64,000 nucleotides of DNA from Candidatus Magasanikiibacteriota bacterium. GTDB taxonomy: Bacteria; Patescibacteriota; Patescibacteriia; Magasanikbacterales; UBA922. Both the position numbers and the translations under genes were made by a program. The notes beneath the pieces are model-generated. The model searched no databases, was not told the origin of the DNA, and saw only the letters and a program-made list of their open reading frames with translations. The DNA is taken from the NCBI GenBank assembly GCA_003510435.1, contig DOMK01000010.1:41487-105486 (forward strand), read 5' to 3'. Shown in pieces: positions 942 through 62,469 of the stretch. Position 1 is the first letter of the stretch. Every line of letters starts with the position of its first letter.

Positions 942-963
942 AAAAAAACACCTCTAAAAGGTG
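942..963 (-). terminator. rho-independent terminator for the minus-strand GC-rich cassette
   Basis: On the minus strand, CACCTTTTAGAGGTG hairpin followed by TTTTTTT; lies exactly at the GC-rich/AT-rich boundary. Confidence 0.5.
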
Positions 964-1313
964 AAATCCAAGGGAGGAGGGCAGTGAAACGATTATCACT
1001 GCCCAAGCCTCTGGCGGGGGACCTTCCCGCCCGTTGTCGTCAACTACCGCTCGCGCAATAGTCAACAAACGTTTGTCGCTTGTCTGCCCCGACAGGATGT
1101 CGAGGAGCGATGGGTCCGGTGTCTGACTCCGAGGAGGTCCACGGCAGCGCATCACCAGCCTGGCCTGGGCTTGGTGACACGCGTTGGTGTCTCGGAGTCT
1201 CTGAGTTGGAGAACTCTGTGAAGCGTGTCGTTGCCGATGTGCTTCAATACCTTGTGGTCCCCGCTCGGGTAGTGGCTTCGGTCCGTCTCTGGACCTGGCC
1301 TTACCCTTCTTCG

Positions 1314-1671
1314 CTACCGAGCGGGCTCGTCCGGGGGGTTGTCGCCCTCCACTTCGTCGACGTCGCTCCCGCCTGCGCCGTCTCCGGGGTTGTCCTCGGG
1401 GGTGACGAGGAACTCGGTTCCTTCCGGGAAGCAGTTCCCGGGGAAGAAGCGAGGCTCCATTCCCTTGCGCCCGATCGCGAAGTAGATACGTCCCCCGTCG
1501 ACTTCGACCCACGTGGTGCCACAGATGGCACCGAAGGCGGCCTTGGCCTTGCACGTGGCCGAGTACTTGAGGGACCAGTCCCCGTCGAGCAGGTTCAGGC
1601 GGAACCTACCCATCACACTTCCGACCTGGTCGAATTCCGTTTCCTCTTGGAGGACTTTCGCTCCGATCTCC
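1314..1671 (-). CDS. hypothetical protein (~119 aa) in GC-rich island; foreign-type codon usage
   Basis: ORF with very high GC3 (GAC/GTC/TTC/AAG codons); GAGGGAG SD 6 nt before the ATG at 1671 (track start GTG 1697 is also possible); own promoter upstream; no family recognised. Confidence 0.5.
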
Positions 1672-1723
1672 ATTCGGATCTCCCTCAATGCTACCACTTG
1701 TGAGTAGCGTTTCTATTGCACCA

Positions 1724-1752
1724 TTTTTATCATAAATACACAGGTTTGTCAA
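1724..1752 (-). promoter_or_regulatory. sigma70-like promoter for GC-island gene a
   Basis: Minus-sense TTGACA-N17-TAAAAA in the AT-rich flank immediately 5' of the island. Confidence 0.45.
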
Positions 1753-1908
1753 GTCTGGTTTAGTCAAGAATTTAAAAATGTGGTATAATGTAAAATGCTT
1801 GCAAGGCTTACAACGCCTACAAAGCTTACAAAGAAAATATTTAATTTATTGTCTTGTCAGCCTTGTTGGCTTTTTAAGCTTTTATTTTATACTTTTAACT
1901 TCTGTAAT

Positions 1909-4684: not shown

Positions 4685-5821
4685 ATGACACCAATGAGAA
4701 AAGAAACAAATCTTGGTAATAATCAACCGGTTCGGCTTTATAAATTTATTGCTCTGACTTTTTTGTTGATTACAATTGCTCTGTTTTGTTTAATTGTCTT
4801 TATGTCTTCCAAAGAAGCTGTAATTACAATCACAACCAAGTCGGATCCAATTGATGCTAACAAGTATGTGGTGGTTGGTCCGAGGGGAGAATGGTCTGGG
4901 GTTGTAACTTCTACAATCGTAATGATGGAAAAAGATTTTAATCCAACTGGTAATCGAGAAGAACCAGCCGTGGCGACTGGAGTGGTGACTTTGTTAAATG
5001 AATCAAATGAAAATCAACCGTTGGTTGCTACCACCAGACTTTTGACTCCAGAAGGGATTTTATTTCGCTTAAAAGACAGAGTATTGGTACCAGCTGGTGG
5101 TACAGTGGAGGCCAATGTTTATGCTGACCAACCTGGAGCTGGTGGAAATATTGGTCCAGTGGAAAAATTTACTATCCCTGGGCTACGCGAAGATACTCAA
5201 AAAGTAATTTATGCTAAGAGTGTGTCGCCAATGTCTGGCGGGGTAAAGGTAATTGGAGTTTTGAGTGAGGTTGATGTAAAAAAATCTGAGGAAGTAATGC
5301 TTGCAACTTTGGAAGAACAAGGAAAAGCATTTTTATCAAAATTAAATATTAGTACTAATACAGTTTATAAAGTTATTGAGAGTAAATTTGAAAACAGTGC
5401 CACAGTCGGTACCGAAGTAGCAGGTTTTAAATTGAAGGGGCAAGCAACTGTTTTGGCAGTATTTTTTGATAATGCTAACGTGGAGACAGAAGCCACCACT
5501 TTACTCAGTAAACGTCTGGTGGATGAAGCAGAAAATTTATCTGAAGAAGGGGCTTCCCATTCAATTGTGTTGGATAGTTATGATCTGGCCAAAGGTACAG
5601 CGGTTTTACAGATTTTTTCCAATGGCAAGGTGAAATTAGATCCAGGTAGTAAACAATTAGATAAAATGGTTTTTTATGGTAAAACAAAAGATGAAGTCAG
5701 ACGCTATTTATTATCTTTAGATCATGTTCAGAGTGTGGATATCAGTTTCAAACCAGCGTGGATGAGGACTGTGCCCCATGTGGCTGACCATGTACAGGTA
5801 ATTGTGAAAGAGGTGGAGTAA
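4685..5821 (+). CDS. hypothetical membrane-anchored protein
   Basis: Single N-terminal TM helix, then a soluble domain; downstream of pilB, so possibly pilus-associated; no motif recognised. Confidence 0.45.
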   Translation: MTPMRKETNLGNNQPVRLYKFIALTFLLITIALFCLIVFMSSKEAVITITTKSDPIDANKYVVVGPRGEWSGVVTSTIVMMEKDFNPTGNREEPAVATGVVTLLNESNENQPLVATTRLLTPEGILFRLKDRVLVPAGGTVEANVYADQPGAGGNIGPVEKFTIPGLREDTQKVIYAKSVSPMSGGVKVIGVLSEVDVKKSEEVMLATLEEQGKAFLSKLNISTNTVYKVIESKFENSATVGTEVAGFKLKGQATVLAVFFDNANVETEATTLLSKRLVDEAENLSEEGASHSIVLDSYDLAKGTAVLQIFSNGKVKLDPGSKQLDKMVFYGKTKDEVRRYLLSLDHVQSVDISFKPAWMRTVPHVADHVQVIVKEVE

Positions 5822-5964
5822 TATCATTTAATTTCGAAGGAACATAGTGGCTGAGAAATCCCTTGTGTTAAATAAATGATTTATAAATTGAGATAAAATA
5901 GAGATATTGAAATATATAAAATATTGGTTATTGACAATTTTTTGATAATATAATACTATATAAA

Positions 5965-6168
5965 TAAGCGATTGATGTGGCTACCAACCATATTCTGCCT
6001 CTCCGGCAGATCCTGTTCAAAGGACTAAGCTTATAAATCGAGTTAAACTTTCGGGTGGAACCGTCCTAATAAAACACAGATGACGCGGATTTCTATGCGA
6101 ATGACGCAGATAACGCGAATTGTGATATTATTGAGACCCCGATACTACTAGTTAGTGTTGGGGTTTTT
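5965..6168 (+). ncRNA. candidate small transcript (promoter-to-terminator unit without long ORF)
   Basis: TTGACA-N17-TACTAT at 5931-5959, internal hairpin TCTGCCTCTCCGGCAGA, three ATGACGC(G/A)GAT-like direct repeats, strong terminator hairpin plus T-run at 6133-6168. Confidence 0.25.
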
Positions 6169-6172
6169 TAAT

Positions 6173-6291
6173 ACACTGATTTCACTGATTTTGTGAGCCT
6201 GCCTGTGGGCAGGGATTTCACAGATTATAATAATCAGTGAAATCAATTTATAAATCAGTGCCTGCCTGCGCAGGCAGGTAATCAATGTTAT
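6173..6291. repeat. MITE-like repeat family A (TIR AACATTGATTACACTGATT), two units with GCCTGCC hairpins; ends at the GNAT start codon
   Basis: CACTGATTTCACTGATT .. AATCAGTGAAATCAAT .. AATCAATGTTAT-ATG; copies at 905-941, 13416-13504, 24317-24384, 33034-33085, 39037-39152. Confidence 0.7.
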
Positions 6292-6837
6292 ATGAAAGGA
6301 CCAATTTTAAAAGGACCAAGAGTAACTTTGCGTCCAATGAAAGTTAGTGATGCGCCAAATTATGTGCGTTGGTTTAAGGATAAAGAAGTAATGAAATATT
6401 TTAATAATAACGTGTGGGGAATTAGTTTGGAAAAAGAAAAAAGCGCTATTAGATCTTTGCAAAGAAAAGTAAATAGTTTAAATTGGGCTGTAGAAGTGGA
6501 TGGATATCACATTGGTGGTACAGGAATAGTTTTGGATAAAAAGGCTGGTACAGGACGTTGGGGCATAGTGATTGGCGAAAAAAAAGAGTGGGGGAAAGGT
6601 TATGCTGTTGAAATTATTTATCTGTGTGCAGATTATTTTTTCAAAAAATTAAAAGGTGAAAGATTTGATTTAATGGTTGAAATGAAAAACGAAAAAGCTT
6701 TAAAAGCTTATAAAAAAGCTGGTTTTAAATTGGAAGGTGTAATGAGAAGTGCTGGTTATAATCCAAGGTTGAAAAAGAGAATAGATTCTGGTGTTATGAG
6801 TATTCTCCGTTCAGAATGGTTAAAATATAAAAAATAA
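6292..6837 (+). CDS. GNAT family N-acetyltransferase
   Basis: 181 aa; acetyl-CoA binding-like segment (GIVIGEKKEWGKGYA); RimL-like. Confidence 0.7.
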   Translation: MKGPILKGPRVTLRPMKVSDAPNYVRWFKDKEVMKYFNNNVWGISLEKEKSAIRSLQRKVNSLNWAVEVDGYHIGGTGIVLDKKAGTGRWGIVIGEKKEWGKGYAVEIIYLCADYFFKKLKGERFDLMVEMKNEKALKAYKKAGFKLEGVMRSAGYNPRLKKRIDSGVMSILRSEWLKYKK

Positions 6838-7489: not shown

Positions 7490-9268
7490 ATGGAAAAAGA
7501 ACAATTGGAGGCCATGCGTCATTCATGCGAACATGCCTTAACAATGGCCATGATGCGTTTGTGGCCGGGGAAAATTAAAGCCGCTATGGGTCCAGCCACG
7601 GATGATGGATTTTATTTTGATTTTGATTCAGAAGTAAAAATTTCTGAAGCGGATTTTGATAAAATAGAAAAAGAAATGGCCAAGATTATCAAAGATAATT
7701 TGCCAATGATAAAAGACGAAATGACAGTGGCAGAAGCGAGAGAATTTTTTAGTCGTAATACTTATGAGGGCAATGAATATAAACATGAATGGTTAGATGA
7801 GATAGAAGGTAGAGGAGAAAAAGTCAGTGTATACTGGATGGGAGAAAAGGGTGGAGATATGCCAAATACTTTTGTGGATATTTGTTCTGGTCCTCATGTA
7901 GAATCTACTGGTAAAATTGGCGCTTTCAAATTATTAAAAGTCGCGGGAGCTTATTGGCATGGTGATGAAAAAAATAAAATGTTACAAAGAGTTTATGGCA
8001 CAGCTTTTGCTACCCAAGAAGATTTGGACAAGTATTTAACAATGATGGAAGAAGCCAAAAATCGTGATCATCGTAAATTGGGAGTAGAATTAGATTTGTT
8101 TACTTTTTCAGATTTGGTTGGTCCGGGTTTGGCTTTGTGGACGCCAAAAGGAACATTACTGCGCAATACTTTGGATGAATATGTGTGGCAACTTCGTAAA
8201 GAACGTGGTTATACCAAAGTGACTATTCCTCATATTACCAAAAAAGCTCTTTATGAAAAGAGTGGTCATTGGGATAAGTTTGCGACCGAATTATTTCACA
8301 TCACTACTCGCGAAGGCCATGAGTTTGCCATGAAGCCAATGAATTGTCCACACCATACGCAAATTTATGATCATGTCCGTCGGAGTTATCGTGAATTGCC
8401 CCAACGTTATGCTGAGACTACCATGGTTTATCGTGATGAACAAACTGGAGAACTGTCTGGTTTATCTCGTGTGCGTTGTATTACTCAGGACGATGCCCAT
8501 GTATTTTTGCGTGAATCACAAGTAAAAGAAGAAATTTTTAAGATTTGGGATATTATTGAAATTTTTTATAAAGCGACTGGCTTTGGCAAGATGCGCGTGC
8601 GTTTGTCATTTCATGATCCAGATCATTTTGAAAAATATCTTGGTGAAAAAGAAGTTTGGGAACGAACAGAAAATCAATTGCGCGAACTGGCTCAAGAGCG
8701 CGGAGTAGAAGTGTTTGAAGCCAAGGGAGAAGCCGCTATGTATGGACCAAAAGTAGACTTTATTGCGGTTGATTCTATTGGTCGTGAATGGCAAGTAGCC
8801 ACAGTTCAGCTAGATCGCAATTTGCCAGAACGATTTGATCTAAATTGTATAAATGAAAAAGGTGAACAAGAAAGAATTGTGATGCTCCATGCTGCAATTA
8901 TGGGTTCGATTGAACGTTTTCTATCTATTTTAATAGAACATCACGCCGGAGCTTTTCCAGTTTGGATGGCGCCTGTACAAATACAATTGGTACCAGTCTC
9001 AGCTAAGCATGTTGAGGGGGCAAAAAATTTACTAACAGAATTGGTAGAGCTGGGAATTAGAGTAGATATAGATGAGGCGGACGAAACTGTAGGAAATAAA
9101 GTGCGTAAAGCTGTAGGACAAAAAATTCCTTACATTGTCGTAGTGGGGGATAAAGAATTGGCTGGTGAAGATTGGATGATTCGCGTGCGTGGGCAAGAGA
9201 ACCAAGAAAAAATGAAGAAAGAAGAATTTGTAGAAAAAGTTTTAGATGAAACAAGAGAGAGGAAGTAA
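7490..9268 (+). CDS. thrS: threonyl-tRNA synthetase
   Basis: Class II aaRS motifs, NRDHRKLG, C-terminal anticodon-binding domain; 592 aa. Confidence 0.9.
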   Translation: MEKEQLEAMRHSCEHALTMAMMRLWPGKIKAAMGPATDDGFYFDFDSEVKISEADFDKIEKEMAKIIKDNLPMIKDEMTVAEAREFFSRNTYEGNEYKHEWLDEIEGRGEKVSVYWMGEKGGDMPNTFVDICSGPHVESTGKIGAFKLLKVAGAYWHGDEKNKMLQRVYGTAFATQEDLDKYLTMMEEAKNRDHRKLGVELDLFTFSDLVGPGLALWTPKGTLLRNTLDEYVWQLRKERGYTKVTIPHITKKALYEKSGHWDKFATELFHITTREGHEFAMKPMNCPHHTQIYDHVRRSYRELPQRYAETTMVYRDEQTGELSGLSRVRCITQDDAHVFLRESQVKEEIFKIWDIIEIFYKATGFGKMRVRLSFHDPDHFEKYLGEKEVWERTENQLRELAQERGVEVFEAKGEAAMYGPKVDFIAVDSIGREWQVATVQLDRNLPERFDLNCINEKGEQERIVMLHAAIMGSIERFLSILIEHHAGAFPVWMAPVQIQLVPVSAKHVEGAKNLLTELVELGIRVDIDEADETVGNKVRKAVGQKIPYIVVVGDKELAGEDWMIRVRGQENQEKMKKEEFVEKVLDETRERK

Positions 9269-13415: not shown

Positions 13416-13504
13416 ACATTGATTCCATTGATTATTTACTGATTTCGCTGAGTATATCAATTACAATCTGTGTAATCTTTAGTAATCAGTGAAATCAATG
13501 TTAT
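13416..13504. repeat. family A MITE-like element abutting the miaA start
   Basis: GACATTGATTCCATTGATT ... AATCAGTGAAATCAATGTTAT inverted termini; miaB stop TAA lies inside the upstream TGTGGTATAAT -10. Confidence 0.7.
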
Positions 13505-14446
13505 ATGAGAGAAGAAACAAAAAAATTACAAAAATTAATTGTGGTAGTTGGTCCAACTGCTAGTGGCAAGACTAACTGGGCTTTGCGTTTGGCCAAGAAA
13601 TTTAATGGCGATATTATTTCCGCTGATTCAAGGCAAATCTATAAAAAAATGGATATTGGCACAGCCAAAGAGCCTGGTGAATGGCGAAGAAATGGTTTGC
13701 GCAAAACTTACTATATCGAAGATATTCCCCATCATCTAGTTGATTTTCTGGATCCAGGCAAAGCTTTTACAGTGGCAGAATTTAGAGACAAGGCAGTAAA
13801 GTATGTAAAAATGGCGCATGAAGATGGTAAAATGCCGTTGATGGTAGGTGGAACAGGTTTGTATGTTCATTCTTTGGTAGAAAATTTGCAAATTCCTCGC
13901 GTACCGCCAAATAAAAAATTACGTGATAGTTTAGAAGAAAAAAATAATGAAGAATTGATGACTTGGATTACTAGTCTTGACCCAAAGACTGCCGAAACAG
14001 TTGATCCTAATAATAAACGTAGATTAATCCGAGCGCTTGAAGTGTGTATTCTTAGTGGGGTGCCTTTTTCTGAACAACAAATTAAAGGTGATCCATTGTT
14101 TGATATTTTAGAAATTGGGATTGAAGTGGAAAGAGAAACACTTTATGAAAGAATTGATAATCGTGTCCAGAAAATGTTTGATCTTGGTTTGGTAAAAGAA
14201 GTAGAAATTTTATTAAAACAAAAATATTCATGGGAATTACCTTCCATGAGCGGAATTGGTTATCGTCAGTTTAAAGAATATTTTGAAAAGAAAATTTCTT
14301 TGGACGAAGTGAAAGAAAATCTTAAACACGATACCAGAAGATATGCCAAACGACAATTGACTTGGTTTAGGCGAGATGAAAAAATAAAGTGGTGCAAGGA
14401 ATATGAAGAAGCAGAAAAATTGGTAGAAGATTTTTTAAAAAAATAG
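13505..14446 (+). CDS. miaA: tRNA dimethylallyltransferase
   Basis: VVVGPTASGKT P-loop; DSRQIYKKMDIGTAKP motif. Confidence 0.9.
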   Translation: MREETKKLQKLIVVVGPTASGKTNWALRLAKKFNGDIISADSRQIYKKMDIGTAKEPGEWRRNGLRKTYYIEDIPHHLVDFLDPGKAFTVAEFRDKAVKYVKMAHEDGKMPLMVGGTGLYVHSLVENLQIPRVPPNKKLRDSLEEKNNEELMTWITSLDPKTAETVDPNNKRRLIRALEVCILSGVPFSEQQIKGDPLFDILEIGIEVERETLYERIDNRVQKMFDLGLVKEVEILLKQKYSWELPSMSGIGYRQFKEYFEKKISLDEVKENLKHDTRRYAKRQLTWFRRDEKIKWCKEYEEAEKLVEDFLKK

Positions 14447-20615: not shown

Positions 20616-21796
20616 AAAATAATTACTCTTTGATTTAAAATAGTGGCGATGGGCCAGCCGCGGAGTGATAATCCAACAAATGGACTCCAACCGCATTTAG
20701 TTTTTAAATTTTCATTGGTTACTTCTTTTTCTAGATCCAGATCAATTATAACCAAGTCGTTTGTCTCAGGAATGTTAAAGATTTTTTGGATGTTGAAATG
20801 CGTTAATTCAGTAATTTTTTCTAAGGTAATTTTACCGTTTTTAAACTCATTTAGCAAGAGGGGTAAAGTAGTTTCTAATCCTGGTACGCCTGATGGGGAA
20901 TTGGGATATGGCTTAGCTTTTTCTTCTAGGGTATGTGGGGCATGGTCTGTTCCAATAGTATCAATTGTACCGTCTAAAATGGCTTGCCAGAGGGCTTTTT
21001 GATCGTTTTTGGTACGAAGGGGCGGATTCATCTGCCCCAGGGTCCCTAGGTGATTATAATCATCTTCTGATAGAAATAAATGGTGAGGGGTGACTTCAGC
21101 ATAGATCTTAATACTCTCTAATTTGGCTTGTTTAATCAATTCAATTTCTTCTTTAGTACTGACATGACAGATATAGAGTTTGGTGTTGTATTTTTGAGCA
21201 AGTTTGATGGCTTGAGAAACGGCTGTAATAGCAGCATCTCGTGAGCGTATTTTCGAATGATCTTTTACATTGTTACATTGTCCCATTGTTACATTGTTGT
21301 TTTTAATGACAGCTTCGCTCTCTGCATGTACTGCCACAATCAAATTTAACTCTGCACAGGTTTTAAAAATATTTTCTTGATCTTCAATTTTATCAACTAA
21401 TAAATCACCAGTACTGGCACCCATGAAAAGTTTTACACCAATAATTTCGTTTTTACATTTGGCAAATTCAGTATAATTATTTGGCGTTGCTCCAAGATAT
21501 AAATAATAATTCAAAGGAATATTTATTTCGTCCAATTGTTTATCAATTATTTTTTTCTTGTGCTCAAGTGCTAAGGTGCTTATAGTGCTTGGTGAGTTAT
21601 TAGGCATGTCAAATACTGTAGTGTAACCACCTGCCATGGCAGCTTGCGCACCAGTCTGCCAATTTTCTTTGTGTTCAGATCCTGGAGTACGAAAGTGAAC
21701 GTGAGGATCAATTAAGGCTGGTAATGCTAAGAGATTGCCTTTGATTTCGGGTAAGTCTAATTCAAGAGTCTGATTGTTCCAGGTTTTGATTAACAT
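20612..21796 (-). CDS. pyrC: dihydroorotase
   Basis: DPHVHFR metal-binding motif, amidohydrolase fold. Confidence 0.8.
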   Translation of the reverse strand: MLIKTWNNQTLELDLPEIKGNLLALPALIDPHVHFRTPGSEHKENWQTGAQAAMAGGYTTVFDMPNNSPSTISTLALEHKKKIIDKQLDEINIPLNYYLYLGATPNNYTEFAKCKNEIIGVKLFMGASTGDLLVDKIEDQENIFKTCAELNLIVAVHAESEAVIKNNNVTMGQCNNVKDHSKIRSRDAAITAVSQAIKLAQKYNTKLYICHVSTKEEIELIKQAKLESIKIYAEVTPHHLFLSEDDYNHLGTLGQMNPPLRTKNDQKALWQAILDGTIDTIGTDHAPHTLEEKAKPYPNSPSGVPGLETTLPLLLNEFKNGKITLEKITELTHFNIQKIFNIPETNDLVIIDLDLEKEVTNENLKTKCGWSPFVGLSLRGWPIATILNQRVIIL

Positions 21797-21869
21797 TTTT
21801 CACATATCACGTATCACATATCACGTATCACAGTTGTTATGTGTTACGTGTTTTATGTTACGTGAAAAA
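21797..21869. repeat. palindromic repeat family D (ATCACGTATCACAT) directly 5' of pyrC
   Basis: TCACGTATCACATATCACGTATCAC // GTGTTACGTGTTTTATGTTACGTGA; related copy at 55606-55690, directly 5' of prfA. Confidence 0.6.
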
Positions 21870-22814
21870 TTAATTTGTAATTCGCGTTCCTGATTTACCT
21901 TCTAGTGCACTAGCAAGTTTATTCGGTGAAGTAATGATGGCTTCTTTCCCACCGTTTTCTAAAAAATTAATTACCGCCTGAATTTTTGGTAACATAGAAC
22001 CTTTGGCAAAATGATTTTGTTCAATGTACTTTTTTAATTCCTGAATATTTATTTTTTCTAATTTTTTCTGATCTGGTTTGCCAAAATTTATATAAACATT
22101 ATCCACGGCGGTGGCAATGACAAGAGTGTCGGCTTTTATTTGATTGGCAAGAAGGGCAGAAGCAAAATCTTTATCAATTACTGCTTCGACACCTTTTAAT
22201 TTTCCTCTTTCCTCTACAACTGGAATACCACCGCCACCGCAAGCAATAACAATGGTATTATTTTTTATTAATTCTTGCACAATATCTTTTTCAATTACAT
22301 CAATTGGTTTGGGAGAAGCCACAACTCGACGCCAGCCTCGACCAGCGTCTTCTTCTACTGCCCAGCCATATTTTTTGTACAAAGTTTTGGCTTGAGCTTT
22401 GGTATAAAAAGAGCCAATCGGTTTGGTTGGGTTGTTAAAAGCAGGATCATTTTTGTCCACCAAAACCTGGGTGACAACAGTCACGGCTTTTTTGTTCAAT
22501 TTTTTCTTGGTAATAATATTATCCAAGCTTTGTTGAAGATAAAAACCAATTGCACCTTGAGTTTCTGCATCAGCCGTGTCCAAAGGCACACGATGTAATT
22601 TTAATTGATTAAAACCCAATTCAGATCTTTGCATAATAAAACCAACCTGTGGTCCGTTGCCATGGGTAATAACAATTTCTAAATTTTTGCTGAATAGTGG
22701 AAGCAAAGCTTCGCAAGTTTTTTTTACTTGGAAATATTGGTCTTTTTCGGTTTGGTGTTCTTTATCTTTGATAAGAGCATTACCACCAACAGCGATGACG
22801 ATTCTTTTTGACAT
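21870..22814 (-). CDS. arcC: carbamate kinase
   Basis: N-terminal IVIAVGGNAL, amino-acid kinase fold, ~314 aa. Confidence 0.8.
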   Translation of the reverse strand: MSKRIVIAVGGNALIKDKEHQTEKDQYFQVKKTCEALLPLFSKNLEIVITHGNGPQVGFIMQRSELGFNQLKLHRVPLDTADAETQGAIGFYLQQSLDNIITKKKLNKKAVTVVTQVLVDKNDPAFNNPTKPIGSFYTKAQAKTLYKKYGWAVEEDAGRGWRRVVASPKPIDVIEKDIVQELIKNNTIVIACGGGGIPVVEERGKLKGVEAVIDKDFASALLANQIKADTLVIATAVDNVYINFGKPDQKKLEKINIQELKKYIEQNHFAKGSMLPKIQAVINFLENGGKEAIITSPNKLASALEGKSGTRITN

Positions 22815-23395: not shown

Positions 23396-24316
23396 TTAAA
23401 GTTTTCCCAATACTAATCCAAGTAACGCTTGTCTCACATACAAACCATTTTCCGCTTGTTCAAAATAATAGGCATGTTTGGTCGCATCAACATCAGTCGT
23501 GATTTCATTGACGCGTGGCAAGGGATGCATGATGCGTAAATTTGGTTTGGCTTTGTCGAGCATTTTGGCTTTGAGAATAAAAACATTTTTTACCCGTTCA
23601 TATTCCATCGGGTCGGCAAATCTTTCACCTTGAATTCTGGTCATGTACAAAATATCTACTTTGTTAACTACTTCTTCTATTTTTTTGTGTAATGAAAATT
23701 TAACTTTTTTGGCTTTTAATTCATCACAAATATATTCTGGCATTTGTAAATTATCTGGAGCCACAAAATATAATTTAGCATTGAAATGAACTAGAGCTTG
23801 AGCTAGAGAATGAGTAGTCCGACCATATTTCAAATCGCCAACTAAGGCAATTTCCAAACCTTCAAGTTTTTTCTGACATTCTTGGATAGTAAATAAATCT
23901 AATAGAGTTTGCGTTGGATGTTGGTTGGCACCATCACCGCCATTTAAAATTGGTTTGTCGGTCGCTTCACTAGCGCGTCTAGCTGCACCCTCAATCGGAT
24001 GACGCATGGCAACTACATCTACATATTGGCCAATGATTTTAATGGCATCGTAAAGGGTTTCACCTTTTTTGGCCGAAGTGACGCCAGGATCTGCAAAGCC
24101 AACGACTTTTCCACCCAAGCGATTCATAGCGGTTTCAAAAGATAAGCGAGTTCTAGTAGATGGTTCAAAAAAACAACTGCCCATGACTTTGTTTTCCAAT
24201 AATTTTGGTTGAGGTTTTTGTTTTAGTTCGCGCGCGATTTTTAAAATATGCAACATTTCTGGTTTGGTTAACTCAGAAATGGAGATGATGTCCCTACCTT
24301 TGAAGTTTAATGCCAT
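23396..24316 (-). CDS. pyrB: aspartate carbamoyltransferase catalytic subunit
   Basis: STRTRLSFE and HPLPR motifs. Confidence 0.9.
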
Positions 24317-24515
24317 ATAACATTGATTACACTGATTTAATACTTGCCTGAGGGCAAGGATTTCACAGATTGTGATTGAATAAATTTTTTTAATATAATT
24401 CTGTTTTAATCCGTTTGTATCTGTTTAATCTGCTGTTTCTAATTCGTTTGGTTGTAATTGTTTACAGCAGATTGAACAGATTATAACAAATTATAATGGA
24501 GCAAAATAAATTAAT

Positions 24516-38453: not shown

Positions 38454-38458
38454 AAAAA

Positions 38459-38546
38459 AGCTTACAATGCCAACAAGGCTTACTAGGGCTTACCAGGCTT
38501 TGTTAGCATTGTGAGCTTTGCAAGCCTTGTAAGCTTTGCAATTATA
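38459..38546. repeat. repeat family E (GCTTACAAGGCTTAC / AAGCCTTGTAAGC)
   Basis: Copies at 814-853, 1795-1832, 38459-38546, 40044-40113, each just upstream of a gene start. Confidence 0.6.
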
Positions 38547-39036: not shown

Positions 39037-39152
39037 ATTAACATTGATTACACTGATTAAAATTGATTACACTGATTTTAGACAGAAGCGTTTGATTATT
39101 ATTGGTTTCAATCTGTGAAATCTTTAATAATCAGTCTAAATCAATGTTATAT
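39037..39152. repeat. family A MITE-like element between rplK start and nusG end
   Basis: AACATTGATTACACTGATT (x2, tandem) ... AATCAGTCTAAATCAATGTT terminal inverted repeats. Confidence 0.7.
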
Positions 39153-40039: not shown

Positions 40040-40183
40040 ATAAAATGCTTATAATGCTTACGAGGCTCACTAGGCTTGGGTAAGCCTTGTCTGCCTTGTC
40101 GGCTTTGTTAGCCTTTATTTTGAAGTATCTAAAAACGGCCTTGAGCCGATTTAGTAATAATATACTAGATTAGCGTGATTTTG

Positions 40184-40966
40184 TCAAGTAATTGCAGTGG
40201 ATAAAACAGGGTCATATAATTTTGCTTGTCTCCATAATAATTCAAAATGTTCTAAATATCCTTTGGCAATGGCTTTATTTTGTATTTGAATGATGGTTAC
40301 ATCATTACTACCGGTGTATATCTCAATAGTTACCATTTCTGGAGTAATACGAGTGTAAGTAGGAGAGGATAGCCCCACTGTCATGGTTTTTAAAATATTG
40401 CCTTTTTCTTTAGCAAATTTATTTTTAAATTCTTCTGAATAATCAGCCGGTGAAATTAAATATTTAGATACCCGATTATCTTCTAAATACTTTACGTAGT
40501 TTTTATAAAGATTACCAATTACTCGATAAAAATCTATATCTTTGGCACCGCCAATAATACGCATAATGCCATCAGTTTTGGAAGCTGAACTAACCACATC
40601 TTTTAAATTATCAAAAAATCCTTTTTGTCCGTAAAAAGTTTTTACTTCAATTTTATCTATCGCTTCAATTTGTAATTTGACTAAATTTGGCAAAATTTTT
40701 CTAATTTGAGCCTCTTTATCTTCCAAAGTTTTTAGTAAAATTGAAGGTGAAGCTGCTTGAAAATATTTGCGATTGTTTTTGATTACATAAGAAACTAGAT
40801 TTTTATCTTCTAGCCTTTCTAGAGCTTCATAAACCAGCTGGCGATGAAGTTTAGTATTGGTAACAATTGGGCCCACATTTGTTGAGCCTAATTTAAGAAG
40901 TTCCAAGTATGTTTTAGCTTCGTTGGTATTTAATCCTATTTTCTCGAGGGTAGAAAGTATTTCCAT
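40184..40966 (-). CDS. TrmB-family transcriptional regulator
   Basis: N-terminal wHTH LSTLEKIGLNTNEAKTYLELLKLG. Confidence 0.6.
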   Translation of the reverse strand: MEILSTLEKIGLNTNEAKTYLELLKLGSTNVGPIVTNTKLHRQLVYEALERLEDKNLVSYVIKNNRKYFQAASPSILLKTLEDKEAQIRKILPNLVKLQIEAIDKIEVKTFYGQKGFFDNLKDVVSSASKTDGIMRIIGGAKDIDFYRVIGNLYKNYVKYLEDNRVSKYLISPADYSEEFKNKFAKEKGNILKTMTVGLSSPTYTRITPEMVTIEIYTGSNDVTIIQIQNKAIAKGYLEHFELLWRQAKLYDPVLSTAIT

Positions 40967-41042
40967 ATGTTCCTATTATAGCATAAAAGTTATATTTTGT
41001 CAAGATTTGATGACAATAATATTTTTCTGTCATCAAAAAAAC

Positions 41043-41071
41043 TTGACAATATTATAAATTTATGATATAGT
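41043..41071 (+). promoter_or_regulatory. sigma70-like promoter of the higher-GC methyltransferase gene
   Basis: TTGACA-N17-TATAGT; overlapped by a nested palindrome. Confidence 0.55.
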
Positions 41072-41154
41072 CATTTATTACACTAAGGATGAACAAGTTC
41101 ATCTAAAGTGTATAGGTGTTGCTGTTTACAATTCACAAAGAGAAGGAGAAGAAG

Positions 41155-41955
41155 ATGCTAGAGTCTACTCAGAGAACCTATTCGTGTATGAGGAGAGAAA
41201 TTATTCGCAACCCTAGTTTGATTTATTGGGCCTTGCAAATGATTTTGCAAGAACTCGAGTTGTCCTGGGAAGACAGAGTATTTGTCCATCAAGAATTTTT
41301 GAATATCCTGCAGCGTGAGGTGCTGGAGGAAAAGGCGGCGCGAGAAGTCTGGGACATTGTTTGTCCACACCAGGCAGTTTTGAAGGAAAAACTGCAGAAG
41401 AGAGCCTTGCTGATTTATTCCCAAGTAGAGTACTATCTCAGGAAGGGAAAAATTCTTGACTTTGGTTGTGGCGATGGACGCGTTGGTCAGCTAGTGGCTG
41501 ACAACACGGCTCAACAAGTCTGCTTGTATGATGTGGCAGACTACAGGAGAAGTTCTGTGCGTGATGCAAACCTGCCTTTCTTCTCAGATTGGCAAGAGGT
41601 TGGAGCCCAGCAGTTTGACACTGTCATGTCACTGTTGGTTTTCCACCATTCTGAAGACCCAGATCAGGAAGTATCCAGGTTGAGTAAGGTTTGTCAGAGA
41701 TTGGTGGTAATTGAATCGGTCATTGACGATTCAATTGTGCCCTGGTCAGCCCAAGCAACCATTGATTGGATTTATAATCGTGGTTTTCATCCTGGGGCCA
41801 TGGTTCCGGTGCCAGGGCAGTTCCGTACGTCACAAGATTGGTTAGAGACTTTCTGTCGTCATGGTTTTTCCCTAGTCGATAGTCAGGACCTTGGCATTGA
41901 TTTGCCAATTGTTCCTGAACATCATTGGCTGTTTGTTCTGGACCGTGAGGTTTAG
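41155..41955 (+). CDS. class I SAM-dependent methyltransferase (higher-GC gene)
   Basis: ILDFGCGDGRVG SAM-binding motif; GAAGGAG SD; about 47% GC versus about 30% in the flanks. Confidence 0.6.
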   Translation: MLESTQRTYSCMRREIIRNPSLIYWALQMILQELELSWEDRVFVHQEFLNILQREVLEEKAAREVWDIVCPHQAVLKEKLQKRALLIYSQVEYYLRKGKILDFGCGDGRVGQLVADNTAQQVCLYDVADYRRSSVRDANLPFFSDWQEVGAQQFDTVMSLLVFHHSEDPDQEVSRLSKVCQRLVVIESVIDDSIVPWSAQATIDWIYNRGFHPGAMVPVPGQFRTSQDWLETFCRHGFSLVDSQDLGIDLPIVPEHHWLFVLDREV

Positions 41956-42058
41956 AACAAGTCCTTTCATTTGGTTGGACAGTGGTTACAGCCACCATTG
42001 CCCAACCTCCATTCTAGTATTTTTAATTAAATTAAAAACAGTAGTGAGGAAAATTAAA

Positions 42059-42088
42059 ATATCCCGATTTTATCGGGATATTTTTTTG
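42059..42088. terminator. bidirectional terminator between methyltransferase and gyrB
   Basis: Perfect ATATCCCGAT-ttt-ATCGGGATAT hairpin with A-run/T-run. Confidence 0.8.
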
Positions 42089-42118
42089 TATCGTGTTGTG
42101 TGTATTTTGTATCTTATT

Positions 42119-44368
<2,250 letters not shown>

Positions 44369-44541
44369 TTAAATCATAAATTAAAAATCATAAATCCTAA
44401 ATAAATTAAGATTTATTGTTTTCTAGTTTAATTATGGCAATATTATAGCACGATTTATTATATTCTTACAAGGGTAAAAGATGTGGATAAAATTTGGCTA
44501 AAATAAGCGAAATAATAAAGATTAATAAAAGTGGAAAATTC

Positions 44542-44570
44542 TTGACAAAAGCATTTTTTTGTGGTATAAT
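44542..44570 (+). promoter_or_regulatory. sigma70 promoter of GC-island gene b
   Basis: TTGACA-N17-TATAAT with TGN extended -10. Confidence 0.6.
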
Positions 44571-44636
44571 ACTCGGTCCTGAAAATGGGCAATTGTTACA
44601 GAATGGAACGAACCTTACAACTCATTGGAGGGCGCT

Positions 44637-46187
44637 ATGAACTGGTTGAAGAAAGAGATCAACCGTATGGTGAGCGAAGGCGGCTGGAGCATTGGCGCTC
44701 TGGTAGTCGCTCTGGTGGCGTTCGCTGCCACCGTATTGTGCACCTCGCTCGTGGCAGGTGTGCAGATCGCTCGGGCCGTAGCCTATCTTGGCGGGCCCTT
44801 GCTCGTTCTCGCCTTTATGGCGGTGTACGTTGCCTTTAGGAAACTGCCTTGGAAAAAGGCTGTTCTCCTGCTGGTGTTGTACATCGCCGGACCTGTCGGC
44901 ACTCTGCTCGTGGCAGGTGCTGAGTTGGCAGAGATTGTGTCTCTGCTGACCCTGGGCACGGTCGTCGTCGTGGGGATCTTCCTCATGAGGAAACAACATC
45001 CTGTGATCGCCAAGGTCGTACTGTTTGGAACGGCGTGGGCGGTTGTAATGTGGAACGTCCCGCCGGAATATGAGGGCTGGGCTTGGTGGGTCACTCAGAT
45101 CCTCCTGGTCATCGTGGCTCACGGGTTGGCTCGGGCTTTCCTGTTGCCCTGGCTGGTCAAGTGGATTGAGATGGGTATCACCTGGTTCTTCGGAACCGAC
45201 AAGATGCTCAAGACTCGTCCGTATCTTCGGACGGTCCTCGATCTGATCCTACTCGCGATTGCTATCCTGTTTCTCAGCTGGGTCGTAGGGGGACGATTCC
45301 CCCAGGTCGCGACATGGATTGCTCGGGCTGCTCTAATTACCCTGGCCTATCCCATTAGGCTGGCATATAAGTGGGAGCCGGCGATCACTCGGCTCGTGGC
45401 TGGGTTTGCTGCCATCCTGGTCGCTACGTCGTATCTCGTGGACGACTCGTGGGCCACGAACCCAGTTGAGTCTTTGGTCATGGCCTTTGCGCTTTTCCTG
45501 TTCTGGTTGGAAGTGGTAAAACCGCGCCTCAAGGTGTGGGAGTACTACTCCCGGAACAACTGGGAGAAGCCTCTCTTGGTGGCTGGGATTATCATGGTGG
45601 TCGGCTGTGGAGTCAACTACATGGTAATTCATCTCTGGAACAACATGTGGTTCACCCAGGAGAATGGGTGGAGAATCCCAGAGTTGTTCTGGAAGGCCCC
45701 CGAGGTCGTAGAGATGATAGGGGAAAAGAAAGTGATGATCGTCCCGATGGGTTGGCTTAGAGCCACGCGGGTCGTCCCTATGCTCATCCTTGGCCTGGCT
45801 GTGGGTCTGGCCAACCACGGCAAACTTCCAAAGTACAAGAAAGAAGAGCGCACTGGCCTCGCGTTCTTCATCGGTCTTGGTTTGGGGGTGGCGTTCTTGC
45901 TACTCTTGAAGACCGAGATTCAACTCTCCGTTCTCCTTGGAGCGGGGTTGTTCATAGGTTTCGGCTTAGCTCTCATCGTGGGGCCGTGGCGGTGGCTCGT
46001 CTGCGTGGCCTGTTCTTGGGCCATGACAGTGGGGATGCTTTCGTCCCCGGCCTATGCCGTTCGCGCTTTGCTGTGGGCTCTGCTAACGGCTGGCATGTCG
46101 GCCTGGGCTGCCGCTTTTGTTCGGCTGATCTGGGAGAAATCCTGGGAAATGGCCGGCAAAACCAAGGCTAAGAAAAAAGGCCACTAA
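44637..46187 (+). CDS. polytopic membrane protein (~14 TM) in GC-rich island
   Basis: High GC3 codon usage; GGAGGG SD 4 nt before ATG; Trp/Leu-rich TM helices; no family recognised. Confidence 0.55.
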   Translation: MNWLKKEINRMVSEGGWSIGALVVALVAFAATVLCTSLVAGVQIARAVAYLGGPLLVLAFMAVYVAFRKLPWKKAVLLLVLYIAGPVGTLLVAGAELAEIVSLLTLGTVVVVGIFLMRKQHPVIAKVVLFGTAWAVVMWNVPPEYEGWAWWVTQILLVIVAHGLARAFLLPWLVKWIEMGITWFFGTDKMLKTRPYLRTVLDLILLAIAILFLSWVVGGRFPQVATWIARAALITLAYPIRLAYKWEPAITRLVAGFAAILVATSYLVDDSWATNPVESLVMAFALFLFWLEVVKPRLKVWEYYSRNNWEKPLLVAGIIMVVGCGVNYMVIHLWNNMWFTQENGWRIPELFWKAPEVVEMIGEKKVMIVPMGWLRATRVVPMLILGLAVGLANHGKLPKYKKEERTGLAFFIGLGLGVAFLLLLKTEIQLSVLLGAGLFIGFGLALIVGPWRWLVCVACSWAMTVGMLSSPAYAVRALLWALLTAGMSAWAAAFVRLIWEKSWEMAGKTKAKKKGH

Positions 46188-46444
46188 CCCGCTAGCCAGT
46201 CGGTAAACACTGGTCGGGTCTATGATTGGACCCTTTCGTCTCCAACCGGGAGGCGAGAAAAGAGCGCAAGCTCAGATTGATTTCGTTCCAGACAGTCAAA
46301 TGTCTGATGGACGATGAAGAAATGGCAGGCCGTTGGCTCGAAACCCAACGTACCTGCCCTCCGTTTACTTACTAAATATTATTTTGGTGGGTGAACAGAG
46401 AATATAACACGATACAAAATACACATAGCAAAATACAAGAACTT

Positions 46445-46476
46445 CACCTCTACCTGTGCAAGGTGGAGGTTTTTTA
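46445..46476 (+). terminator. rho-independent terminator after island b
   Basis: CACCTCTACC..GGTGGAGGT hairpin followed by TTTTTT. Confidence 0.6.
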
Positions 46477-46583
46477 TTTATCTTTCTGTAAGCGCGCCCT
46501 AGTGATTGTGGTGATTGATTAATTATTTTTTAATTTTGTGGTATAATAATATAAAGTATTTTTGATTAAATTATTTTGGATTT

Positions 46584-51548: not shown

Positions 51549-51695
51549 CTGAATTATTATAATAATTTTATAATCATTCGGAATTTGGGCACTGAAACGC
51601 ACCCAGTGGCTTCCGGCCTTGGCCACTGGTTAAGGGTGGTTACAGCACGAACTAGAAGAAAGAGCGCGGGGATGGAACGGGGAGGAAGTAGCCAC

Positions 51696-52079
51696 CTAGC
51701 CGAGCAGGAGCTGCGTGAGCGCCTCGATCATGGGGATAGGCTTCTCCATGGAGTAGCCCTTCTCCCGATCCCACGAGTGGAACCGATCCTCGACGGAGTG
51801 GTCCGGGCCGTTCGAGCACGGCACGAACATCCCCATCCCCACATCCTCGACCTTGAAGCCGAAGGACACGAGGAAGTCCTGGACGAGACGTCCCGTCTCG
51901 TAGTCGCCCCGGAGGAAGGGGCAACCACCAGTGATGTAGCCGAACAGCCACGCGCGACTGTCGGCCTCGCCTACGACGTCGGTCGGGGTCTCGACCAGGC
52001 TCTTGGCCCGGCCGGTCGACGTCGGCCGAATGGCCAGCGTCCCATTGTTCATGCACACGGTGAAATCGCACGGCCTCAT
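51696..52079 (-). CDS. hypothetical protein (~128 aa) in GC-rich island
   Basis: High GC3 ORF MRPCDFTVCMNNG...; AGGTGA SD 4 nt upstream; consensus promoter; no family recognised. Confidence 0.5.
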   Translation of the reverse strand: MRPCDFTVCMNNGTLAIRPTSTGRAKSLVETPTDVVGEADSRAWLFGYITGGCPFLRGDYETGRLVQDFLVSFGFKVEDVGMGMFVPCSNGPDHSVEDRFHSWDREKGYSMEKPIPMIEALTQLLLG

Positions 52080-52137
52080 CTGATCACCTGATGTGGTTCG
52101 ACGTCCAGTATGGTCCCCGACCATCTGGAACAATACT

Positions 52138-52165
52138 TTATACCATAAAAAAACCAGCCTGTCAA
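52138..52165 (-). promoter_or_regulatory. sigma70 promoter of GC-island gene c
   Basis: Minus-sense TTGACA-N17-TATAAA with TGG extended -10. Confidence 0.55.
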
Positions 52166-52195
52166 GAGGACGGTCTGTTTATTGGCTAAAATAAG

Positions 52196-53104
52196 CTAGA
52201 ATTTCATCTCTACTATTCTATCTAATCCAGCTAAATCTTTGTGAATAGTTGTTTTGGCTTGGGGAAGATATTTTTTTATAAGTTGTTTGATGGTTTTGGT
52301 TTGGCGAGGATCTATTTCAATAAAAAGGAGTAAGGAGTAAGGAGTAAGCCTGCCTGCGCAGGCAGGGAGTAATTGACGAATTTGTTTAAAAAGTTTTTCG
52401 TAGAGTTCGTGGCCGTTTTTGCCAGCAACGAGAGCTGATTTTGGTTCGTGCTGAATAGATGATTCAGATTTGAATTGTTGTGGTGTGAGGTAGGGGAGGT
52501 TGGCGGTGATAATGATTGATGAATAATGATTGATGAATGATGAATTAAGAATTGGTGAGAGAAGATCGCCGTGGAGGAATTTTATTTTTACGTTGTGTAA
52601 TTTTGCATTACGGCGAGCGACAGATAATGCTGGTTTGGAAATATCGATAGCGAATGATTTAAAGATTGAATGATTTAAAGATTGAATAATTGAAATTGGT
52701 ATACAACCAGTTCCAGTGCCAACGTCAATCATAATAATCTTCGAATCTTTCAATCTTTCAATTTCGTCGAGCACCAGCGAGACCATCAATTCCGTATCTG
52801 GTCTTGGTATGAGAGTATATTTATTTACAATAAAATCCAAACCATAAAATTCTTTATGACCAGTGAGATAGGCTAGAGGAATACCTTGAACGCGTTTTTT
52901 AATTAATTTATTAATTGTATTTTGTTGTGTGTATGTTGTATTTTGTTCGGGGTGGGCAAGTACAAACTCACGTGGTTTTTTTAACACGTGGGCAATAATT
53001 AATTCTGCATCTAAAATTGGCAGATTATTTTTTTGTGCTAATTGTAGAAGTTGTTGAATAGTTTGGAGCATGGAATTCAAATAAATATAAATCCACATAA
53101 CCAT
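52196..53104 (-). CDS. prmC: release factor glutamine N5-methyltransferase PrmC/HemK
   Basis: DVGTGTGCI SAM motif, NLPY (NPPY-type) motif; start may be the internal MLQTIQQ (53071); contains an in-frame repeat insertion. Confidence 0.8.
   Translation of the reverse strand: MVMWIYIYLNSMLQTIQQLLQLAQKNNLPILDAELIIAHVLKKPREFVLAHPEQNTTYTQQNTINKLIKKRVQGIPLAYLTGHKEFYGLDFIVNKYTLIPRPDTELMVSLVLDEIERLKDSKIIMIDVGTGTGCIPISIIQSLNHSIFKSFAIDISKPALSVARRNAKLHNVKIKFLHGDLLSPILNSSFINHYSSIIITANLPYLTPQQFKSESSIQHEPKSALVAGKNGHELYEKLFKQIRQLLPACAGRLTPYSLLLFIEIDPRQTKTIKQLIKKYLPQAKTTIHKDLAGLDRIVEMKF
52325..52372. repeat. GGAGTAAGG x3 plus GCCTGCCTGCGCAGGCAGG hairpin repeat inside prmC coding sequence
   Basis: The same GCCTGCCTGCGCAGGCAGG unit occurs at 6263-6284; related hairpins at 6196-6212, 24343-24360, 26849-26868, 50037-50066, 62417-62438; AAGGAGTAAGGAATAA copies at 15146-15175, 49885-49915, 62440-62470. 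Confidence 0.7.
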
Positions 53105-54566: not shown

Positions 54567-55605
54567 AATCTGCTTTTCTTAGAGCTTCAATTACATTTTC
54601 CAAATTGCCGTTTAAAATCGTATTGATATTATTCCAACTTTCATGAATGCGGTGGTCAGTAATTCTGTCTTGAGGAAAGTTGTATGTGCGGATTTTTTCA
54701 CTGCGATCAGCCGTACCAATTTGTTTTTTTCTTTTGGCATCAAGTGCGGCGGTTTGTTTGGCTCTTTCAATTTCATAAATTCTGGCTCTAAGAACATTCA
54801 TAGCTTTTTCTCGGTTTTGAATTTGGGATCTTTCATCTTGGGATTGAGCCACTACCCCAGTCGGGATATGAGTAATTCTCACCGCGCTATAAGTAGTGTT
54901 TACACTCTGGCCACCATGTCCGCCAGCACAAAAAGTATCAATTCTAAGATCATTGGCATTGATTTCCAATTCAGTCTCTTCAATTTCTGGTAAGACAGCT
55001 ACACTGGCAGTAGAAGTATGAATGCGACCAGATTTTTCTGTTTCGGGAATTCTCTGTACACGGTGCACGCCCATTTCATATTTCATATCTTTGTACACAT
55101 TTTTTCCGGTAATAGAAAAGATTACTTCTTTGTAGCCACCAATGCCAATTTTATTTTCATCAATTAGCGTGGTTTTCCATTTGTGGGTTTCGGCATACTT
55201 CATATACATGCGCATGAGATCACCAGCAAACAGAGCTGATTCATCACCACCAGCTCCAGCCCGGATTTCCACAATTACATCTTTACCATCGAGTGGGTCG
55301 GTTGGTAATGTTAAAACATTTAATTCGTTTTCTAATTCATTTTTTTTATCGCGCAGTTCTAATAATTCAATTTCTGCTAGTTCTTTGAATTCGCCATCAG
55401 CTTCGTTTGTAATAATAATTTCATTGTCTGTAATATTTTTTTCAATACTTTCTAGAATAATAATTTTTTCAGCCGTGGGTTTGAGATCGTCATATTCCTG
55501 AGCCGCGGCTTTTAATTTATTTTGGTCAGCAATAATTACTGGATTTTGTAGGTCCAATTCTAATTTGGAATATTTATTTTTAATATCTATATATTTTTGA
55601 AGCAT
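54550..55605 (-). CDS. prfA: peptide chain release factor 1
   Basis: GGQ motif ([12 protein letters not shown]), RITHIPTG. Confidence 0.9.
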
Positions 55606-55748
55606 AATTTTTCACGTATCATGAGACACATATCACGTAACAATTATTATACCACGTTTTTTGATATGTGGTATGTGATGTGTGTGGGTTAATTTATTTA
55701 AAATAAAAGACAGACTATAATCAAGTCTGCCTTTGAAATTGTGGACAG

Positions 55749-62111: not shown

Positions 62112-62469
62112 CGTTTTTATCATTATAAAAGATAAAAATAATATAAATTGTTTAAAAATTACAAATTAAAAAATCCAAATTACAAATAAATTACAAAAAA
62201 CAAAACAAAAAAATAAAATTGTAATTTGGAATTTGAGTTTTGTTTGTCATTTGGTATTTAGATTTTGGAATTTTAATTCTATGTTATTAAATAAAACAAT
62301 TTTAAAAAATCGTTGGTGGCACTACTCCTGGCGTTGAGTAGTAGTTTTGTTTACCCTGAGTGAACCGAAGGGTTTACCCATTACATACTGCTCGACCTGG
62401 GCAGTTTTTTTTACTCCCCGCCTGTGCAGACAGGTTTACTCCTTACTCCTTATTCTTTATTCCTTATTT

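Follow-up and report, generated by a model that had tools for sequence, protein, structure and literature searches.

The DNA under study (the window) is a stretch of 64,000 nucleotides from a Candidatus Magasanikiibacteriota genome (contig DOMK01000010.1, positions 41,487 to 105,486), and our subject is cassette b, a GC-rich unit in which a promoter and a factor-independent terminator of its own enclose a single open reading frame (ORF). Cassette b lies directly beside gyrB, as an earlier note made from the sequence alone had pointed out, and on its far side follows p301, a 301-aa gene that is the normal neighbour of gyrB; ftsW, ribosomal proteins, nusG and secE are further neighbours. The unit and its divergent neighbour are laid out as follows:

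42119-44365, minus strand: gyrB, divergent neighbour of cassette b (gene calls).
44542-44570, plus strand: sigma-70 promoter TTGACA-N17-TATAAT with a TG-extended -10 (promoter scan, 12/12).
44577-44636, plus strand: 5' untranslated region (UTR) of ~60 nt, 45% GC, unstructured (folding z = +1.5).
44627-44632, plus strand: Shine-Dalgarno (SD) site GGAGGG, 4 nt ahead of the ATG at 44637.
44637-46187, plus strand: coding sequence of an ORFan integral membrane protein, 516 aa plus stop (ORF translation).
46188-46400, plus strand: structured 3' UTR with seven hairpins (folding against shuffles).
46446-46476, plus strand: intrinsic terminator with a 10-bp stem, a 5-nt loop and a T-run (terminator scan; stem-loop 46446-46470).

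The perfect promoter, the SD site, the ORF rich in GC at third codon positions (GC3) and the host terminator at the end of the tail had all been proposed in the earlier note, and all of them hold. Its figure of 58% GC for the island was slightly high: the block 44572-46362 has a GC content of 0.56 and is thus GC-rich against flanks of 0.20 and 0.29 and a window average of 0.36. Within the ORF, GC at codon positions 1/2/3 is 0.58/0.42/0.71, with a GC3 of 0.71 compared with 0.21-0.30 in the host genes gyrB, ftsW, L25 and p301.

The GC-rich tail behind the stop codon had been put at 140 nt but measures ~175 nt (46188-46362), and besides the two hairpins named at the time, both of which are present, it carries four or five more. 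Folding places six or seven near-perfect hairpins one after another ahead of the terminator:

46195-46214, 46216-46233, 46234-46258, 46262-46273, 46283-46314, 46324-46358 and 46359-46400, plus strand: hairpins of the cassette b tail (RNA folding).

The minimum free energy of the region 46188-46480 is -115.1 kcal/mol versus -71.7 +/- 4.9 in dinucleotide shuffles (z = -8.8), and the first 170 nt past the stop codon (46188-46357) score z = -4.6. Sense-strand 150-nt windows inside the ORF have a mean z of -2.0, compared with means of ~0 in three host genes and -0.9 in a fourth. We considered a structured RNA gene and discarded this idea, with no Rfam match at the gathering threshold or at E<=5. 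When the cassette was compared with 1.7 Mb of related loci, its GC-rich body and tail showed no similarity, and only the AT-rich end modules matched.

The protein encoded by cassette b is polytopic, as predicted, with 14-16 transmembrane (TM) segments by hydropathy where about 14 had been counted, and 516 residues long plus stop rather than 517. Its loops are short throughout and alternate between K/R-rich ones (inside) and acidic or neutral ones (outside) in keeping with the positive-inside rule, with a predicted N-in/C-in topology that leaves the Lys-rich C-terminus inside. The largest outside loop (residues 332-373, 42 aa) is Trp-rich, the first one (residues 40-46, GVQIARA) contains neither D nor E, and the hydropathy topology includes no soluble domain and no large periplasmic domain. 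An internal TM-hairpin duplication, hinted at by 18-21-nt DNA repeats 159 nt apart, did not prove significant at the protein level, where the top-scoring internal repeat reaches 47 and shuffled sequences attain a maximum of 44 +/- 4.

An identical NCBI entry exists under DEB09_02935 ("MAG TPA: hypothetical protein", Candidatus Magasanikbacteria bacterium). Profiles of Pfam and NCBIfam matched zero families even at E<=10, which agrees with the earlier statement that the family is unrecognised, and PHROGs, PADLOC and PDB sequences gave no match either. A word-indexed search of 5.8 billion clusters and an exhaustive phmmer run over 1.84 billion representatives each returned the protein itself and nothing else, and no relative was found in IMG/VR, GenBank phages (tblastn) or PLSDB plasmids (tblastn), so that ~15 billion public proteins contain no detectable relative. 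The same self-match was the only outcome of the suggested check for homologs in other bacteria of the candidate phyla radiation (CPR) or in high-GC phyla, and because no homolog was found, the protein is not a conserved CPR core membrane protein. The product of cassette b, whose family has no known members, is a real membrane protein, since the chance of a 516-codon open frame at 57% GC is ~5e-9 and since K/R-rich and acidic or neutral loops alternate along its length.

To place the locus among relatives, we used a GyrB-based scan with one genome per species that yielded 80 CPR loci (related loci and contigs are cited as L with a number). The order DUF3048 - L25 - p113 - ftsW - p301 <-> gyrB is conserved in ~40 Magasanikbacteria, in which p301 and gyrB are direct divergent neighbours. 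In the closest relative, L007 (GyrB 93% identical), the p301-gyrB gap is 190 bp, and this locus lacks not only cassette b but also cassette d and the pair of a TrmB-like gene and cassette c, units of the window that are described below. Alignment to the empty L007 site delimits the insert:

44476-46505, plus strand: inserted segment relative to the empty L007 site (5810-6001), aligned by eye with bounds of about +/-20 nt.

Homology to L007 extends up to "caagggt" on the left and begins again from "gattgatt" and the p301 promoter on the right, and the AT-rich promoter and terminator modules therefore belong to the insert beside its GC-rich core. Because p301 and gyrB are adjacent in ~40 relatives and 190 bp apart in L007, cassette b is, as judged by this alignment, a lineage-specific insertion of ~2 kb. 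The same p301/gyrB slot is filled by unrelated genes in L030 and L034.

Contiguity at the island edges, which the earlier note had wanted checked, was confirmed by long contigs of several assemblies that cross both edges without an assembly breakpoint. Exact-sequence look-ups recovered contigs from JGI 3300009031, from the ENA assemblies SRR2177986 and SRR2177953 and from Logan SRR6487867, SRR2177986 and SRR5855242, all of them with 0 mismatches to the window except for one single-nucleotide polymorphism at 46538. The 5' junction of the insert is spanned by L001-L004 and L194, the 3' junction by L001, L002, L005 and L194.

On either side of the GC-rich core lie AT-rich modules with the following elements:

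44482-44490, minus strand: perfect DnaA box TTATCCACA in the left AT-rich module (box scan).
44496-44508, minus strand: near-palindromic GCTTATTTTAGCC, an operator-like motif that lies upstream of both -35 boxes, by 24 nt for gyrB and by 37 nt for cassette b.
44557-44571, plus strand: 15-nt TTTTGTGGTATAATA in the cassette b promoter, identical to the p301 promoter -10 region at 46534-46548.
46402-46441, plus strand: AT-rich 40-nt element, a host-type pre-terminator module, 80% complementary to 42083-42122 just downstream of the gyrB stop.

By sequence, both AT-rich ends of the insert look host-derived. The 5' module shows 72-97% similarity to the blocks that precede cassettes in L017, L018, L023, L028, L034, L035 and L043, with a further match at L028 12982-13009, and the gyrB 3'-flank motif that resembles the right-hand element is orthologously kept downstream of gyrB in L007. 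The two copies of TTTTGTGGTATAATA bracket the insert as a direct repeat, and the core of this 15-mer, TGTGGTATAAT, is also found at 1779 and 13403 in the window; the repeat may have arisen by local duplication or may be a promoter core that is common in the host. An AT-rich element of 33-40 nt, (A)CACGATACAAAATACACA..., is seen just upstream of terminators at 42083-42122 and 46402-46441 in the window and at 8246-8272 and 12170-12202 in L007, with further copies in L010 (8870-8903) and L011 (12327-12358). It may represent a module conserved in 3' UTRs or ahead of terminators.

The operator-like motif GCTTATTTTAGCC has two exact copies in the window, the one between cassette b and gyrB and another upstream of the cassette d promoter (52184-52196); it also precedes cassette promoters in L023 and L017 and, as a variant, in L007. 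In metagenome contigs, a scan for GCTTATTTTAGCC with TTGACA behind it at a distance of N10-40 found 106 exact matches (L088-L193) with a spacing peak at 16-17 nt. As a side observation, a gap of 16-17 nt separates GCTTATTTTAGCC(AA) in these contigs from downstream promoters of the consensus form TTGACAAA-N17-TATAAT. Because the genes downstream of the 106 matches are diverse and only ~12% of them are markedly GC-rich, the motif is probably a widespread general CPR operator and not a cassette-specific site. TrmB-like regulators, distant homologues of the TrmB-like gene in the window, follow six of the 106 matches, and a secreted-protein family that by eye resembles the 3D domain was seen behind nine.

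Given the perfect DnaA box in the left module, an oriC at the gyrB/p301 divergence was considered and rejected, with 24 boxes found in the window versus 21.6 expected and hence no enrichment. Around 44400, gene orientation was seen to switch from minus to plus at the gyrB/p301 divergence, and the GC skew is strongly positive to the right. Because DnaA boxes are not enriched overall, proximity of this region to the replication origin is no more than a possibility.

Considering this evidence as a whole, we regard cassette b as probably a lineage-specific, laterally acquired and self-contained accessory expression unit of the moron type that was inserted into the divergent gyrB/p301 promoter region. 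Phage morons, as described for HK97 and lambdoid phages, are autonomous promoter-ORF-terminator units of atypical composition that sit between conserved genes and commonly carry membrane cargo. Cassette b resembles them in its own sigma-70 promoter, intrinsic terminator and single ORF, in a GC content sharply off that of its surroundings, and in its insertion between genes that are adjacent in relatives. It differs in residing on a cellular CPR chromosome and not in a phage or prophage (no phage genes within +/-10 kb, no PHROG match) and in the unusual length of its multi-hairpin 3' UTR. Cassette b thus has every defining feature of a moron but phage residence.

Other known systems are less close. 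Like any horizontally acquired islet, cassette b combines atypical composition with absence from the syntenic site. Horizontal gene transfer is documented in aquifer Patescibacteria, for which competence, conjugation and transduction are the suggested routes (PMC12455944), and cassette b resembles the genomic islands and transferred genes reported there in its atypical composition, its absence from close relatives, its groundwater CPR origin and the plausibility of the same routes. However, the published transfers occurred mostly between Patescibacteria and have recognisable homologs (PMC12455944), whereas cassette b is a 2-kb single-gene ORFan unit with no identifiable donor that is far GC-richer than its recipient. 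With integron gene cassettes and their attC sites it shares a single ORF with imperfectly palindromic or hairpin-forming DNA behind it at the 3' end, as well as, at sister loci, cargo turnover inside conserved flanks; unlike them it has no nearby intI or attI, forms no array and carries its own promoter. An attC reading of the 3' hairpins was rejected after inspection, which found no R''/L''-L'/R' arrangement with a boundary GTTRRRY and no integrase within +/-10 kb; in the hairpin at 46324-46358, GTTRRRY-like and RYYYAAC-like strings do lie beside the loop, but in reversed order and neither at the stem base nor at the cassette boundary. The several stable hairpins between stop codon and terminator also recall repetitive extragenic palindromes and bacterial interspersed mosaic elements (REP/BIME), yet each hairpin of cassette b is unique, belongs to no dispersed family and has no copies in the 1.7 Mb of related loci. 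What is new in cassette b is that strictly one gene stands between its own promoter and terminator, that the tail carries many hairpins, that the end modules are of host type and that homologs are lacking altogether, while islands of horizontal transfer in Patescibacteria were already known (PMC12455944).

In mechanistic terms, the most likely mode of entry is uptake of DNA that then recombined at a hot spot between genes. A foreign GC-rich segment, made up of the 5' UTR with its SD site, the ORF and the hairpin 3' UTR, is framed by host-type modules, an AT-rich one with the promoter on its 5' side and one with the intrinsic terminator on its 3' side. The host promoter and terminator could have been recruited by local duplication or could have been present before as a reusable "chassis". 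The unit would then be transcribed independently from its consensus promoter, with a start near 44577 as inferred from the promoter position and an end at 46446-46476, and translated from the ATG at 44637 into an inner-membrane protein with 14-16 TM segments. In the tail, the successive stem-loops probably shield the mRNA from 3' exonucleases or serve as a processing barrier; mRNA stabilisation by this tail is proposed by comparison with cassette a, whose selected hairpins are presented below.

Several observations weigh against lateral acquisition as a self-contained unit. Searches among proteins, phages, plasmids and viruses for a donor lineage or homologs elsewhere returned self-matches only, and because neither was found, lateral transfer is argued from composition and absence in relatives only. 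No mobility gene such as a recombinase or integrase and no tRNA was detected near cassette b (integrase: +/-10 kb) and no clear target-site duplication or inverted terminal repeat was found at it; the sole candidate for a flanking repeat is the 15-nt TTTTGTGGTATAATA, possibly a common promoter core. Furthermore, two short contigs from different runs (MEGAHIT and Logan) start exactly at 44569, and inside the 3' tail 46281 is the last position of three Logan contigs and 46289 the first of another, though longer contigs cross both 44569 and 46281-46289. These contig ends could reflect GC or coverage bias or heterogeneity in the population.

A broader explanation emerges from units of similar build, three of which (a, c and d) are found in the window itself. 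These are atypical in composition, have TTGACA-type promoters as well as terminators, and bring the number of units to the four that the earlier note had counted:

~945-1760, minus strand: cassette a, GC3 0.80, a 119-aa ORFan-like protein followed by a ~350-nt GC-rich non-coding tail.
41116-41955: cassette c, methyltransferase, GC3 0.48.
~51560-52180, minus strand: cassette d, 127-aa ORFan, GC3 0.84, in the DUF3048/prmC intergenic slot.

For the cassette a protein a single homolog was found, P0004 (59% identical), encoded on the diverged low-GC contig L087 (650-1460) at the same locus, with FtsH and membrane-protein flanks, and in the same architecture; no further members of the family were found in metagenome contigs. 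Promoter, tail hairpins and terminator are kept between the two. Four-fold sites have reached saturation, with an identity of 0.32 where 0.30 is expected (41 sites), yet GC at these sites (GC4) is 0.83 in cassette a and 0.56 in L087 versus ~0.2-0.3 in the flanks, and in the non-coding tail, which is 62-64% identical, the hairpins are kept via eight compensatory pair changes. Separately, we noted a 19-nt direct repeat, atgcttgcaaggcttacaa, that brackets cassette a (831-849, 1796-1814).

Cassettes elsewhere differ in what they carry. In L007, the DUF3048/prmC slot (60-1040) holds another GC-rich cassette, which encodes a 188-aa secreted protein in the orientation opposite to cassette d, and because the window and L007 hold different cassettes there, the comparison indicates a hot spot with cassette turnover. 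In L028 (7386-8766) and L043 (8056-9465), whose GyrB proteins are 91% identical, the 3' tail with terminator has 91% identity over 429 nt, more than the gyrB gene with its 85%, and the upstream block has 81%; the cargo ORFs enclosed, of 219 and 257 aa with a GC3 of 0.96 in both, are unrelated. GC-rich, high-GC3, single-ORF units are frequent in the loci of relatives, where by inspection most cargo ORFs have signal peptides, lipoboxes or TM segments, seven of the ten tested cargo proteins are without a Pfam domain, and the GC-rich 3' tails usually reach z = -3 to -7 versus shuffles. As far as sequence comparison can tell, GC-rich promoter-to-terminator cassettes with mostly ORFan or envelope-type cargo are present at intergenic hot spots across the phylum. 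The tails of different cassette families have no sequence in common, and a 3'-end motif "YTGCCC..CTCC" that had seemed common to cassettes a-d and L087 was not upheld, being reversed in L007.

In the window, the TrmB-like regulator gene (40184-40966) and cassette c were seen together between gyrB and secE (40184-42118), an interval that is hypervariable across Magasanikbacteria (0.2-5.4 kb) and often contains GC-rich cargo such as genes for PBP1A-like, SLT, Cys-rich repeat lipoprotein and FGE-sulfatase proteins.

It is accordingly possible, though we doubt it, that cassette b forms part of an undescribed cargo-exchange system of Magasanikbacteria in which AT-rich chassis modules at intergenic hot spots receive and swap GC-rich cargo ORFs, mostly for ORFan envelope proteins. 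The chassis would consist of the operator-like motif and consensus promoter upstream and of hairpin tail and terminator downstream, and selection would maintain the GC-richness and RNA structure of the transcribed part. The evidence that speaks for it comprises the unrelated cargo ORFs within closely similar tail and upstream blocks of L028 and L043, the different and oppositely oriented cassettes in the DUF3048/prmC slot, the match of the cassette b 5' module to upstream blocks of cassettes in seven relatives, the GC4 and compensatory tail pairs of cassette a and L087 that persist despite saturation, and the scarcity of Pfam domains among cargo proteins. On the other hand, the module of motif and promoter is widespread before mostly non-GC-rich genes and may therefore be an ordinary regulon operator, neither a recombinase nor a common recombination site was found, the tails of different families are unlike, cassette b itself is without a sister cassette, and the argument for GC maintenance has a small sample behind it. 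The L028/L043 and a/L087 comparisons speak for a cargo-swapping system with selected transcripts, but they are few examples and come without a mechanism. Slightly more doubtful still is the full generalisation that these cassettes are an undescribed, transcript-delimited class whose conserved chassis swap cargo and whose GC content and RNA structure are selected rather than being a transient mark of transfer.

Compared with such an exchange system, it is unlikely that the ORF is recently captured foreign DNA or a decaying gene without function in its host. As a singleton without homologs, and with no polymorphism among the recovered sequences from which selection could be judged, it would fit this description, but its perfect host-type promoter, good SD site, terminator, intact 516-codon frame and clean topology signal do not, and the streamlining of CPR genomes and the identical sequence from several sequencing runs point the same way.

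Similarly improbable, and slightly more so, is the earlier proposal that the protein is a polymerase, ligase or flippase for glycans with a GT-C fold or of the Wzy/O-antigen-ligase type. In favour of it are the size, the many TM segments, a sequence divergence of the extreme degree typical of Wzy proteins, and the Trp-rich outside loop of 42 aa. Beyond the shared size of ~500 aa and the 14-16 TM segments, however, there is no sequence or profile similarity to GT-C/PMT_2, Wzy_C/O-antigen ligase, SEDS or MFS/MOP proteins, no diagnostic motif and no significant internal repeat. Neither the PMT_2 (GT-C) protein nor the FtsW (SEDS) protein of the window itself shows similarity to it, the first outside loop has no acidic residue, and a large periplasmic domain is missing. 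No glycan-synthesis genes adjoin it, because cassette b is a solitary insert. The alternative of a novel transporter found no support among secondary transporter superfamilies such as MFS, APC and MOP, for which there was again no profile match and no significant internal repeat.

Finally, an assembly chimera that joined DNA of a high-GC organism to a CPR contig is very unlikely to the point of being dismissed, because the contig ends at 44569, 46281 and 46289 that might suggest one are crossed, like both junctions, by mismatch-free contigs from different assemblers and runs, and a functional-looking promoter and terminator frame the GC-rich DNA precisely in a design that recurs as analogous units in many independent metagenome-assembled genomes.

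Returning to cassette b as an acquired accessory unit, our best guess at its role, held with low confidence, is an accessory envelope function, either permease- or channel-like or as a surface, phage-exclusion or host-interaction factor, because the sister cassettes carry envelope-biased cargo.

Outside the cassettes, the intergenic regions of the window appeared rich in short tandem 7-9-mers that are common to unrelated loci, for example GCTTACAA, ATCACGTATCAC and AGGAGTAAGG. Such sites were seen at 801-858, 1774-1831, 38455-38494 and 40042-40081 and at 915-944, 6225-6295, 13477-13506, 24314-24343 and 39039-39083, and further tandem or leader sites at 21781-21872 / 55605-55652 and at 15141, 49887 and 52319-52372 / 62411-62461. 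Several start codons are immediately preceded by the leader AATCA(A/G)TGTTAT instead of an SD site.

CPR bacteria live as tiny, streamlined episymbionts, and every contact with hosts and phages is made through their envelope. Cassette b suggests that these genomes draw genes from a pool not yet sampled and "domesticate" them, in this case as a gene that by its sequence features looks strongly expressed. The repeated architecture of host promoter module, GC-rich transcript, hairpin tail and terminator may be more useful to know than any single ORFan, and the operator motif and the tail hairpins are concrete elements that are open to experiment. The reading of these units as a cassette system would, if true, be considerably more interesting. 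Together with the cargo turnover in relatives, the architecture hints at a general route by which CPR genomes may install accessory envelope genes.

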